A stretch of DNA of 9,047 nt from a virus, in the UHGV virus genome UHGV-0043901. One strand, 5' to 3'. The notes beneath the pieces were generated by a model that did not search any database, was not told where the DNA came from, and saw only the letters and a list, made by a program, of their open reading frames with translations. Shown here one piece after another: positions 2,889 through 9,047 of this stretch (position 1 is the first letter of the stretch; the number at the start of each line of letters is the position of its first letter). The position numbers and the translations under genes are program-made.

Positions 2889-3188
2889 ATGAGAACATAT
2901 TTATCTGGCTTGACTGCCAGCGGTTATGCACACCCCAAAATTATCCCCGGCGCTATTTATCTGGATAAGAACGGTAACAGAGTAACGGTAAAAGAACTGA
3001 TGTTTGACCGTGTTTATTTTATCCGTGATGGATATTCATTTCTTAGTTCGCTGAACGTGGAGATCTTTATTTGCAGATTCCGGCGGGAAATCCCGACTTC
3101 CAGAAATAACCATGTGTCATGTATGGATGTTGATAAAAAACTACAGGAACTAAAAAACATGATTGCCGCGTGGAGAGAGCAGAAATGA
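2889..3188 (+). CDS. Hypothetical protein (99 aa), translationally coupled to the primase gene
   Basis: Stop TGA at 3186-3188 overlaps the primase ATG at 3185-3187 (ATGA overlap). Confidence 0.5.
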   Translation: MRTYLSGLTASGYAHPKIIPGAIYLDKNGNRVTVKELMFDRVYFIRDGYSFLSSLNVEIFICRFRREIPTSRNNHVSCMDVDKKLQELKNMIAAWREQK

Positions 3189-5002
3189 AAAAAGCGCCAA
3201 ATTTAAAACACCAGCCACGTGACAAAATGACGGAAGTCATCATTTTTGCGGGTAGTGATGCGTGGGCACATGCGAAGCAGTGGCAGGAACAGGACGGGCG
3301 ACTGGCTGGCGACAGCGTGCCTCCTGTCTGGCTTGGAGAGCAACAACTTGCCGAACTGGACAACCTGCAAATCGTACCGGACGGACGCTATCGCGTGCGT
3401 CTCTACCAGGCGGGGTTATTGCGTCCGGGGCTTGTTAATACCATCGGGCAGAAACTGGCAGCGGCAGGTGTCAGGGATGCTGATTATTACCCTGAAGGAA
3501 TGCACAGCCAGAAACGGGAGAACTGGCGCGAATATCTGGAACGTGAACGGGCAGAGCAGGCGGAAAAGAAAAAGGTAGTTGAACTGCCTGTAAAGAAAAA
3601 AGAGCGGGTAAAAGACGATAACGCTTCATCACTGGCGCTTAACCAGATGGGAGCAAGTCAACGCGGCGAAGTTCTCCTGGCACATTATGGCGGTGAACTG
3701 GCGATTCATGCTGACTCTGACACTGTTCACTATTACAACGGCGTTGTATGGGAGCCAGTACAGGATAAAGAATTACAGCGAGCTATGGCACAGATTTTCA
3801 TTGATGCGGAGATCAGCTATTCGCAGAACGCCATTAAATCGGCGGTCGATACCATGAAGTTAAGTTTGCCTGTAATGGGGAATACAGCCCGTAACCTGAT
3901 TGGATTCAGTAACGGTGTTTTTGATACCCGGACAGGCGATTTTCGGGAGCATAACAAAAACGACTGGTTGTTAATTGCCAGTGAATTACCTTTCAGCCCA
4001 CCAGCAGAGGGGGAAACGCTGGCAACACATGCGCCGAATTTCTGGAAGTGGTTACGCCGTTCGGTGGCTGAGAATGACCGCAAGGCGGATCGCGTACTGG
4101 CTGCATTATTCATGGTGCTGGCGAACCGGTACGACTGGCAGTTATTCATTGAGGTAACAGGTCCAGGGGGAAGTGGTAAAAGCGTGATGGCGGAGATTTG
4201 CACCATGCTGGCGGGTAAGGCCAACACAGTATCGGCAAGCATGAAGGCGCTGGAAGATGCAAGGGAACGCGCGTTAGTGGTTGGCTTTTCGCTGATTATC
4301 ATGCCGGATATGACCCGCTACGCTGGTGATGGGGCAGGGATTAAGGCTATTACAGGCGGTGACAAGGTGGCAATTGACCCGAAACACAAAGCCCCCTACT
4401 CAACGCGTATTCCGGCAGTAGTGCTGGCGGTTAACAATAACGCCATGTCATTCAGTGACCGCAGCGGGGGGATCTCACGTCGTCGGGTGATATTCAATTT
4501 TTCGGAAGTTGTACCGGAGAACGAACGCGATCCAATGCTGGCGGAAAAAATAGAAGGTGAGCTGGCGGTAGTGATTCGCCATCTGCTTACACGGTTTGCT
4601 GACCAGGACGAAGCCAGACGCCTGTTATATGAGCAGCAGAAATCTGAAGAAGCACTGGCGATAAAGCGAGAGGGGGATTCGCTGGTGGACTTCTGCGGCT
4701 ATCTCATGGCGTCGGTAATGTGTGATGGTCTGTTAGTGGGTAATGCTGAAATTGTGCCATTCAGCCCACGCAGGTATCTCTATCATGCCTATCTGGCTTA
4801 TATGAGGGCACATGGGTTTGGTAAACCTGTAACACTGACGCGCTTCGGTAAAGATATGCCGGGGGCAATGGCGGAATATGGCAGGGAGTATATGAAACGG
4901 AAAACGAAGCACGGTTTTCGTTCAAACGTGACACTGACGGAGGAATCAGAAGACTGGATGCCATCATGTGTATCGGTCACTAATGACGATAGTAAAAATT
5001 AA
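3185..5002 (+). CDS. Replication initiator: P4-alpha / D5-type primase-helicase with P-loop NTPase (SF3-like helicase) domain
   Basis: About 605 aa from ATG 3185 (GGAGAG Shine-Dalgarno 7 nt upstream; the track start at 3170 is in frame). Walker A GPGGSGKS encoded at 4160-4183; downstream hydrophobic strand plus acidic residues (LIIMPDM) consistent with Walker B; lies immediately upstream of an iteron array. Confidence 0.88.
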   Translation: MKKAPNLKHQPRDKMTEVIIFAGSDAWAHAKQWQEQDGRLAGDSVPPVWLGEQQLAELDNLQIVPDGRYRVRLYQAGLLRPGLVNTIGQKLAAAGVRDADYYPEGMHSQKRENWREYLERERAEQAEKKKVVELPVKKKERVKDDNASSLALNQMGASQRGEVLLAHYGGELAIHADSDTVHYYNGVVWEPVQDKELQRAMAQIFIDAEISYSQNAIKSAVDTMKLSLPVMGNTARNLIGFSNGVFDTRTGDFREHNKNDWLLIASELPFSPPAEGETLATHAPNFWKWLRRSVAENDRKADRVLAALFMVLANRYDWQLFIEVTGPGGSGKSVMAEICTMLAGKANTVSASMKALEDARERALVVGFSLIIMPDMTRYAGDGAGIKAITGGDKVAIDPKHKAPYSTRIPAVVLAVNNNAMSFSDRSGGISRRRVIFNFSEVVPENERDPMLAEKIEGELAVVIRHLLTRFADQDEARRLLYEQQKSEEALAIKREGDSLVDFCGYLMASVMCDGLLVGNAEIVPFSPRRYLYHAYLAYMRAHGFGKPVTLTRFGKDMPGAMAEYGREYMKRKTKHGFRSNVTLTEESEDWMPSCVSVTNDDSKN

Positions 5003-5013
5003 ACTTATGGAAT

Positions 5014-5240
5014 AACTGTTCACCACTGTTCACCCTGTCATAAATATCTTTTATATCAGTATATTATAGGGTGAACAGTTATTTATGAACTGTTCACCAA
5101 ACTATTCACTGTTCACCTTTTTGATTGTTTATTGAGCTTCAAGGGTGAACAGTGGTGAATAGTTGGTGAATAGTTTTTGTGAAACTGTTCACCCCTTAAC
5201 ATTATGAATTAAAAGATAAAATATCAAAAGGTGAACAGGT
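5014..5240. repeat. Origin of replication: iteron array of 9-mer CTGTTCACC / GGTGAACAG in both orientations with AT-rich spacers
   Basis: Perfect copies on plus strand at 5016, 5026, 5090, 5109, 5185; reverse-complement copies at 5070, 5144, 5230; degenerate GGTGAATAG at 5154 and 5165; 11-bp palindromic pair GGTGAACAGTT-7bp-AACTGTTCACC at 5070-5098; interspersed AT-rich stretches (5041-5068). Confidence 0.8.
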
Positions 5241-5289
5241 GAAGGGTTAAAACGCAAAAATTTTAATTTACTGCTGTGAGATAAAGCCT

Positions 5290-5535
5290 ATGACAGCGAA
5301 GCACACAAAAAAATCACAATCGCACGCCCTTGATTTGACGGAACACTGGTTAAGGGTGTCGATAAAAATCATCGACCGCAACGCGGGGGAAGGATATGCG
5401 AAAGCACATCCCGAACTGATTAGCGCATTCATGACAACGGCAGCTGCAAACTTTGCCACGCTGACAGAACGGGAGATTGCCGAAGCGGAACAGGTGACAA
5501 CCATCAACGTTAAAACCAGTGAGGTGGAATCATGA
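5290..5535 (+). CDS. Hypothetical protein (81 aa) coupled to ssb
   Basis: Stop TGA at 5533-5535 overlaps the ssb ATG at 5532 (ATGA); weak Shine-Dalgarno, no recognisable motif. Confidence 0.4.
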   Translation: MTAKHTKKSQSHALDLTEHWLRVSIKIIDRNAGEGYAKAHPELISAFMTTAAANFATLTEREIAEAEQVTTINVKTSEVES

Positions 5536-5942
5536 CAGCACAGATAGCAGCTTACGGGCGGCTGGCAAGTGACCCGCAGTTAAAGACCACCAGCAAGGGC
5601 ACACAAATGGCTATGGCGAGCATGGCGGTCCCCCTGCCGTGCAGCCAGTCGGATGACGGTCAGGCGACGATGTGGTTATCTGTTCTGGCGTTTGGCAGAC
5701 AAGCCGACGCGCTGGCAAAGCATCACAAAGGCGAACTCCTGAGCGTGGCGGGTAACATGCAGGTGAGTCAGTGGACTGGACAGAACGGTGAAACGCGGCA
5801 GGGCTGGCAGGTTATCGCAGACAGCGTAATCAGTGCGCGAACGGTGCGACCGGGCGGGAACAGACGCAAAACCACAGGCACACAGGGTAATCAGCCACCA
5901 GCGGGAGACGATGACCCCTACGGTGATGATATTCCGTTCTGA
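5532..5942 (+). CDS. ssb: Single-stranded DNA-binding protein (OB-fold SSB) with canonical acidic C-terminal tip
   Basis: 136 aa; N-terminal IAAYGRLASDPQLKTTSKGTQMAMASMAV and conserved Trp and Lys-Gly positions fit the SSB OB fold; Gly/Gln/Pro-rich linker; C-terminus DDDPYGDDIPF ends in the DDIPF tail also seen in E. coli SSB. GAGGTGG Shine-Dalgarno. Confidence 0.8.
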   Translation: MTAQIAAYGRLASDPQLKTTSKGTQMAMASMAVPLPCSQSDDGQATMWLSVLAFGRQADALAKHHKGELLSVAGNMQVSQWTGQNGETRQGWQVIADSVISARTVRPGGNRRKTTGTQGNQPPAGDDDPYGDDIPF

Positions 5943-8244: not shown

Positions 8245-8440
8245 GGGTCCTTCCTGGAATTATGGCCCGTTACGGGGCGGCGACCTCGCGCGTTTTCGCT
8301 ATTTATGAAAATTTTCCGGGGAAAATCATGTCGGTACTTCTCGAACATAACTATTTGTTTTTTCTAATATCGAATCCGTAAAAGGTCCGACATGAAAACG
8401 CCTGAAAAAGTCATTTTCGGGCACTCTCATGTCGGCCCCT
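8245..8440 (+). other. cos site (cohesive-end packaging site): cosQ-like region, cosN (GGGCGGCGACCT at 8275-8286) and cosB with three R-like sites
   Basis: 8245-8319 is nearly identical to the recalled lambda cos region (GGGTCCTT-CC...TTACG GGGCGGCGACCT CGCG-GTTTTCGCTATTTATGAAAATTTTCCGG). Downstream R-site positions are collinear with lambda R3-I1-R2-R1, but the repeats read CATGTCGG (8327-8334, plus), CCGACATG (8387-8394, minus), CATGTCGG (8428-8435, plus) instead of lambda CGTTTCC. Distance from cosN to the terS ATG (188 nt) matches lambda (cos to Nu1, 190 nt). Confidence 0.85.
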
Positions 8441-8462: not shown

Positions 8463-9047
8463 ATGAAGGTTAATAAAAAGAAGCTTGCCGAAATTTTCAA
8501 CGTGGATCCGCGGACGATTGAACGCTGGCAGTCTCAGGGGCTTACTTGTGTCTCCGGAGGTGGTAAGGGCGTTGAATCTGTATTTGATACCGCCATGGCA
8601 ATTCAGTGGTATGCGCAGAGGGAAGCTGATATCGAAAACGAAAAGCTCCGGAAAGAACTGGAAGATTTGCGGGCGGCTGCAGAATCAGACTTACAACCGG
8701 GCACCATTGACTATGAGCGCTACCGGCTCACAAAAGCGCAGGCAGATGCGCAGGAGCTTAAAAACGAGCGCGAACGCGGCGACGTTATTGATACAGCGTT
8801 TTGTATATACGTGCTTTCAAAACTGGCGAGTCAGATTTCATCAATCATGGACAGCCTCCCGCTTACTATGCAAAGGAGCTTCCCACAGATGACCCCCGTC
8901 ATGCTGGATGGCCTGAAAAAAGAAGTTGTCAGAGCCTGTAACGCATGCACAAAACTTGATGAAAACATCCCGCGAATGCTGTCCGATTATCTGATGGAAA
9001 CTACCGGAAATGTGCCTGATAAGTTTCAGCCGGATAAAGACAAGTAA
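8463..9047 (+). CDS. terS: Terminase small subunit, lambda Nu1 family (N-terminal winged-HTH cosB-binding domain)
   Basis: 194 aa; collinear similarity to recalled lambda Nu1 across the whole length: [12 protein letters not shown] (MEVNKKQLADIF), [20 protein letters not shown] (EIENEKLRREVEELR), [26 protein letters not shown] ([26 protein letters not shown]), TAFC, LPL. Stop codon is the last three bases of the window. Confidence 0.88.

Follow-up and report, generated by a model that had tools for sequence, protein, structure and literature searches.

A probable replication origin of P4-type iterons downstream of rep in an Escherichia coli phage-inducible chromosomal island

Replication origins of related satellites and plasmids

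Phage P4, a P2-dependent satellite, carries two clusters of type 1 repeats called ori1 and crr that lie 4.7 kb apart; crr is annotated as the 'cis required region for replication' (4291-4590) and the gene for the initiator alpha ends at 4636. The C-terminal domain of alpha reportedly binds the type 1 iterons of both ori and crr, as is said to have been found by Ziegelin, Lanka and co-workers (1993, 1995) and by Yeo et al. (2002). Theta plasmids such as pSC101, R6K, RK2 and P1 possess a dedicated RepA-type initiator that acts with the host DnaA, DnaB and DnaC proteins, and theta-plasmid iterons are typically direct repeats of about 17-22 bp. P4 alpha joins a primase, an SF3 helicase and a C-terminal winged helix (PMC2777425). 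In the phage-inducible chromosomal islands (PICIs) of Gram-negative bacteria, origins consist of sets of iterons flanking AT-rich DNA (PMC6092414, Fillol-Salom et al. 2018). The functionally tested allele is that of EcCICFT073, where a temperature-sensitive plasmid persists if it carries rep together with the DNA 3' of it, and where deletion of rep or ori impairs replication of this plasmid, which is lost or much reduced (PMC6092414). In the same study, the kinship between the PICI Pri-Rep proteins and P4 alpha is regarded as only distant (PMC6092414). In the SaPIs, 6-12 iterons with an AT-rich centre are found right after rep, and the Rep proteins bind and melt DNA in an ATP-independent manner, with probably two self-loaded hexamers (PMC9371898).

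The locus described here is part of a 9047-bp stretch of DNA (the window, meaning the whole stretch that was analysed), which by its gene content is a PICI of the EcCICFT073 type. Its gene order, int-alpA-...-DUF4222-rep-array-orf-SSB-capsid, is that of EcCICFT073: genes for a tyrosine integrase (50-1288), an AlpA-type regulator, an Icd-like protein, a DUF4222 protein (2889-3188) and Rep precede a repeat array, and an 81-residue protein, a single-stranded DNA-binding protein (SSB), a lambda-E-type capsid protein and a D-type decoration protein are encoded after it. The array occupies a gap of 287 bp between rep and the next co-oriented genes. It thus resembles the origins of Gram-negative PICIs in being located directly 3' of rep in an int-alpA-...-rep island transcribed one way, and in its sets of iterons that flank AT-rich DNA. 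The SSB gene is placed likewise after the origin in EcCICFT073 and other islands, and its product is probably an accessory replication factor. Unlike P4, the window element is a lambda-cos island. Positions 8275-8286 are an exact lambda cosN (GGGCGGCGACCT), followed by a Nu1-type small terminase gene at 8463-9047 (Pfam Phage_Nu1, E=2e-73) that is truncated by the window end; the two represent either the island's own cos and TerS-like gene or an abutting lambdoid prophage. No other part of the window holds as many of its least stable 25-mers as the intergenic region between int and alpA (1288-1700, 32-37% G+C), presumably the regulatory region of the island.

DNA similar to the window occurs in thousands of E. 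coli genomes, and among 5,426 complete genomes, 670 carry the 351-bp segment that contains the array; the high identity of these 670 E. coli copies is partly a matter of recent spread rather than selection. In E. coli IAI39 (12001-12351 of locus L003) the array is intact and 99% identical to that of the window, although the annotation lists the adjacent rep as a pseudogene that has an internal stop, and the island adjoins a degraded lambdoid prophage and a TIR-domain gene. The origin region is not among the annotated features under the genome matches or in the island records examined.

The region 5016-5246 is very probably the vegetative replication origin of this E. coli-type PICI, served by the P4-alpha-like Rep protein encoded at 3185-5002. 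The preliminary description of this DNA had already proposed an initiator-binding iteron origin for the gene that ends at 5002, and the proposal is supported because the array is homologous to the annotated origin of P4 and Rep possesses an origin-binding domain of the P4 alpha type, because rep and the region 3' of it replicate a plasmid in EcCICFT073, and because different genera retain the array, whose sequence changes along with the DNA-binding wing of the protein.

The repeat array and its likeness to phage P4 ori1

The features of the locus are as follows (coordinates are those of the window).

3185-5002, plus strand: rep, P4-alpha-like SF3 helicase with a predicted C-terminal origin-binding domain (Pfam D5_N, DUF5906, Pox_D5; identity with P4 alpha)
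4673-4963, plus strand: predicted origin-binding winged-helix domain, residues 502-598 of the 610-aa ORF (phmmer match to PDB 1KA8, E=3.1e-24)
5016-5024, plus strand: iteron 1, CTGTTCACC, outer doublet of the left arm
5026-5034, plus strand: iteron 2, CTGTTCACC, outer doublet of the left arm
5035-5069, no strand: left AT-rich spacer, 80% AT, candidate unwinding element (from its stability and from a length kept in relatives)
5070-5078, minus strand: iteron 3, inverted single of the left arm, half of the palindromic pair with iteron 4
5090-5098, plus strand: iteron 4, CTGTTCACC, inner triplet of the left arm
5102-5110, plus strand: iteron 5, degenerate CTATTCACT with 2 mismatches, inner triplet of the left arm
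5109-5117, plus strand: iteron 6, CTGTTCACC, inner triplet of the left arm
5118-5143, no strand: central spacer, 73% AT, holding the dyad axis at about 5131.5
5144-5152, minus strand: iteron 7, inner triplet of the right arm
5154-5162, minus strand: iteron 8, CTATTCACC with 1 mismatch, inner triplet of the right arm
5165-5173, minus strand: iteron 9, CTATTCACC with 1 mismatch, inner triplet of the right arm
5185-5193, plus strand: iteron 10, inverted single of the right arm, with the conserved flank CCCTTAAC that is also kept in P4 ori1
5194-5229, no strand: right AT-rich spacer, 83% AT, candidate unwinding element (-23.4 kcal/mol per 25 bp)
5230-5238, minus strand: iteron 11, outer doublet of the right arm
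5238-5246, minus strand: iteron 12, degenerate CCCTTCACC with 2 mismatches, outer doublet of the right arm
5532-5942, plus strand: island SSB, single-stranded DNA-binding protein (Pfam SSB, E=4e-16; TIGR00621)

The array begins 14 nt 3' of the stop codon of rep. The window was scanned for CTGTTCACC at thresholds of ≤1 and ≤2 mismatches, with 200 dinucleotide-preserving shuffles of the window as the null. At ≤1 mismatch the 9047-bp window contains 15 matches, 10 of them in 5016-5238, compared with a mean of 1.63 and a largest value of 6 in the shuffles (15 was reached in 0 of 200); at ≤2 mismatches two degenerate copies are added, giving 12 array sites. Counted by the core TGTTCACC, the region 5016-5246 comprises eight exact and four near copies in both orientations. 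These counts bear out the earlier statement that about ten copies of a 9-mer in both orientations are interspersed with AT-rich DNA, the region having about 34% G+C. The tandem triplet at 5144-5173 and the palindromic pair at 5070-5098 reported there were likewise recovered: the former consists of the minus-strand sites 5144, 5154 and 5165, whose starts are spaced by 10 and 11 bp, close to one turn of the helix, and the latter reads GGTGAACAG-11 nt-CTGTTCACC, 20 bp from centre to centre. Inside rep, a pair of oppositely oriented iterons with one mismatch each is also present (3692-3700, minus strand; 3723-3731, plus strand); an internal-origin analogue at these sites was considered and rejected, their count being no higher than chance for the window.

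A feature absent from the preliminary description is the mirror symmetry of the complete array around an axis near 5131.5, each left site having a right partner within 1 bp. From left to right it consists of two direct sites, a spacer of 35 bp, one inverted and three direct sites and a centre of 26 bp, followed by the mirror arrangement with a spacer of 36 bp. The two spacers between doublets and inverted singles contain the least stable DNA within the array (-22.7 kcal/mol per 25 bp for the left one and the value listed above for the right one, against a window mean of -33.7, sd 3.1), and the central spacer shows mild instability only. The mixed orientation and the palindromic pair had been taken as a sign that the initiator binds as a dimer; the repeats, mostly direct and one helical turn apart, fit several binding domains of a helicase ring equally well. 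There is no DnaA box and no IHF consensus inside the array, and no Rfam family matches anywhere in the window.

A blastn search of 4950-5300 against phage records returned a match at the P4 'origin of DNA replication' that spans four 'ori type 1 repeat' features. The P4 'ori type 1 repeat', as annotated in X51522, is TGTTCACC, the core of the window 9-mer. When the left arm is reverse-complemented, it lines up at every site with the right arm and with P4 ori1 (9300-9422), and all three share the order of a triplet, an inverted single with the flank CCCTTAAC, an AT-rich spacer and a doublet; the array is therefore built from the P4 ori1 unit, present twice in inverted orientation. In this unit three direct TGTTCACC sites about one helical turn apart are followed by an inverted site 20 bp on, an AT-rich spacer of 35-36 bp and two direct sites. 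P4 and the window thus have in common an identical 8-bp core in both orientations, six ori1 sites of equal order, orientation and spacing around an AT-rich spacer, and an initiator with a winged helix of the alpha type. Whereas P4 has its two distant clusters, the window exhibits one compact cluster of two inverted ori1-like units, with no bipartite origin and no distant crr. Additionally, no homologue of the P4 ORF106 product (a DUF5375 protein, which we take to be the copy-number regulator Cnr) is encoded by the gene just upstream of rep, that of the DUF4222 protein. A full-text literature search for TGTTCACC returned only unrelated primer lists.

EcCICFT073 resembles the window in gene order, in the origin directly 3' of rep and in the origin layout, although its Rep is only 48% identical to the window Rep and its iteron is CTGTCTACC, not TGTTCACC. 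A closer relative is EcCIRM13514, an island included in PMC6092414, with a Rep that is 87% identical and the same TGTTCACC array. The SaPIs share AT-rich DNA between oppositely oriented iteron sets as well as a helicase initiator with a C-terminal winged helix (PMC9371898), but their iterons are of 5-6 bp and their primase is a separate or differently fused domain. In theta plasmids, repeated initiator sites are also found beside AT-rich DNA; the window differs from them in its 8-9 bp sites in both orientations, in lacking a DnaA-box or IHF consensus in the array, and in an initiator that is itself an SF3 helicase, so that the array does not correspond to an iteron origin of the RepA/pi/TrfA type.

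The Rep protein and the pairing of wing and iteron in relatives

The rep ORF (610 aa) opens at a GTG at 3170, and translation probably starts at the ATG at 3185 because the homologues begin MKxAPNLK; the gene coordinates 3185-5002 given earlier are therefore retained, the end at 5002 being as stated. Residues 150-600 of Rep share 51% identity with residues 320-771 of P4 alpha, covering the SF3 helicase and the C-terminal domain that both proteins have in common. This degree of identity, together with the iteron shared with P4, differs from the distant relation proposed in PMC6092414. The C-terminal 97 residues of Rep match PDB 1KA8, the origin-binding winged helix of P4 alpha, in a phmmer search. 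The gene had been called a primase-helicase gene, of which the helicase part stands and the primase part is not supported: Pfam assigns P4 alpha a zinc ribbon (30-66) and a Toprim domain (210-299), and Rep is without the zinc ribbon and without a recognisable Toprim motif in the same comparison. Since both are absent and the NCBI name 'primase' stems from a model that covers the helicase part, the label appears doubtful for Rep. In a profile comparison between the N-termini of Rep and P4 alpha, only one short match of 35 columns was obtained, which is not significant (probability 1%), and the idea that the Rep N-terminus is a Toprim remnant gained no support; the MAFFT alignment of this region is unreliable.

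A scan with one genome per species yielded 80 loci encoding relatives, in genera that include Escherichia, Klebsiella, Raoultella, Pectobacterium, Serratia, Xenorhabdus and Photorhabdus. Most of them harbor a single cluster of about 215 bp, made of a repeated 7-8-mer and starting 14-90 nt after the stop codon, and a few show a weak repeat family or none after the gene. Three loci from Pantoea and an uncultured Enterobacterales genome (L082, L084 and L085) encode P4-length alpha homologues and have no detectable cluster in the 350 bp 3' of the gene; their origin may lie elsewhere or consist of very degenerate sites. The long Xenorhabdus and Photorhabdus proteins, of P4 alpha length (about 800 aa), are followed by a single cluster, and zinc-ribbon and Toprim motifs are visible in L043 and L017. 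When about 5 kb either side of the gene was inspected, a second, distant cluster was observed only in P4 (L001; ori1, 4.7 kb upstream) as against the related loci L002-L085, and the split between ori1 and crr therefore looks like the exception.

Within the array, the iteron columns are 81% conserved compared with 58% for the rest in 13 diverged TGTTCACC-type loci (Mann-Whitney p=7e-12, for columns that are not independent of one another). The length of the left AT-rich spacer is kept in relatives and an A/T-rich stretch 3' of the last iteron is conserved, while the central spacer differs among them in sequence and length. Both degenerate positions of the window are occupied by other versions in the relatives: that of iteron 5 is a better match (GTGTTCAC or GTATTCAC), and that of iteron 12 is GGTGAACA in relatives and in P4. 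In a related island (9193-9230 of L005) the right inner set has four direct sites, not three; the number of iterons therefore varies by insertion of units beside the central spacer.

The iteron itself is of several types among the loci (TGTTCACC, TGTCTACC, CTGTCCGC, CTCTCCACC, ACTATACAC, GGTGTTCAT and GGTATACAC), and the type co-varies with the beta-hairpin wing of Rep, the segment EYMKRKTKHGFRSNVTL encoded at 4880-4930 of the window. The window wing reads KRKTKHGFRSN and its counterpart in L009 is CTKGPDKGRVITN. A 17-residue wing of the form K(R/K)xTKxGxRSNxxL goes with (G/A)TTCACC in nearly every protein that has it, four proteins with a 22-residue wing that contains GPDKGR are paired with GTCTACC, and other forms of the wing go with other repeats. 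The changes in the wing, including the 5-residue GPDKGR insertion, occur exactly where the iteron passes from TGTTCACC to TGTCTACC or to another type (L009, L014, L017, L022, L019 and L021). In L009, L014 and L017 the helicase core is 89-92% identical to that of the window and the binding domain 63-67%, and the iteron is switched. The pairing provides good indirect evidence that the C-terminal domain of Rep reads the repeats; the independent switches are few, roughly five or six.

Alternative roles, predicted mechanism and meaning for satellites

The location of the array is the reason for the main rival explanation, in which Rep would bind the repeats but replication would start elsewhere, the array being a cis-acting helper or copy-control element like crr that works by titration or handcuffing. 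The array sits right after the initiator gene, which is exactly the position of crr in P4, and crr is a helper site, not a start site, made of the same type 1 repeats. However, no second iteron cluster that could serve as the start site is found in the 9-kb window or in the approximately 5 kb around the related genes, P4 excepted; both arms are colinear with ori1; and deletion of the equivalent region of EcCICFT073 significantly reduced replication. We consider such a helper-only role improbable. Less probable again is that the array is an operator, used by Rep or by some other protein of the island to control the orf81-SSB-capsid operon, with no part in replication. Its placement between rep and the downstream genes would suit an operator, as would the conserved A/T-rich stretch after the last iteron, but no consensus for a sigma-70 promoter or a terminator is present in 4800-5600, an operator would not require twelve sites arranged in dyad symmetry with two AT-rich cores, and this reading has to contend with the homology to an origin defined in P4 and with the functional precedent in EcCICFT073. 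A double function, in replication and in transcription, is conceivable.

Short repeated protein-binding sites are also typical of cosB or pac and of the arms of att, and a packaging or arm-type recombination site was weighed in the same way. The cosN and the Nu1-type gene beside it are nevertheless 3 kb from the iterons, the integrase gene lies at the other end of the window, about 3.7 kb from the array, and the repeat is the binding site of P4 alpha rather than that of a terminase or an integrase; this explanation has the least chance of the three, and a very slight one.

With 5016-5246 read as the origin, a mechanism can be drawn by analogy with P4, EcCICFT073 and the SaPIs. Induction by a helper phage and excision of the island would precede the firing of the origin. 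The C-terminal winged-helix domains of Rep would then occupy the sites that flank the AT-rich spacers, the spacers would melt after Rep binding, and SF3 helicase rings would load themselves, probably one on each arm and in opposite directions. The host polymerase and the island SSB would copy the excised circle by bidirectional theta replication. Priming, the weakest step of this scheme, may depend on the host primase, because Rep has neither the zinc ribbon of P4 alpha nor recognisable Toprim motifs.

This kind of origin has already been described and the general picture of such origins is unchanged; what may be new is that the P4 ori1 unit is duplicated in inverted orientation, that wing and iteron are paired, and that the recognition code is shared with P4. 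A broader reading joins these points: a code of TGTTCACC and the 17-residue wing common to this PICI allele and P4-like satellites, cross-talk between their origins, specificity reset by the wing, a compact origin in place of looping, and priming by the host. Taken as a whole it is tentative and rather unlikely to hold in every part. If it were true, islands with lambdoid helpers and P2-dependent satellites could fire, titrate or block each other's origins in a shared cell, and small changes in the wing would reset specificity, as with the 5-residue GPDKGR insertion that would lead to recognition of TGTCTACC. The compact origin of two inverted ori1 units would replace the looping between ori1 and crr in P4, and Rep, having a primase-like fold minus the canonical catalytic motifs, would rely on host priming.

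At the level of the locus, the origin of a very common E. coli island would now be mapped, and the replicon of this island is a close relative of the classic P4 replicon, a relation called distant in the description of 2018. For annotation, it suggests the rule of looking for an iteron cluster within about 300 bp after a gene of the P4 alpha type. The pairs of wing and iteron may constitute a simple, testable specificity code for self-loading helicases, and the shared iterons predict cross-talk or incompatibility between satellites.
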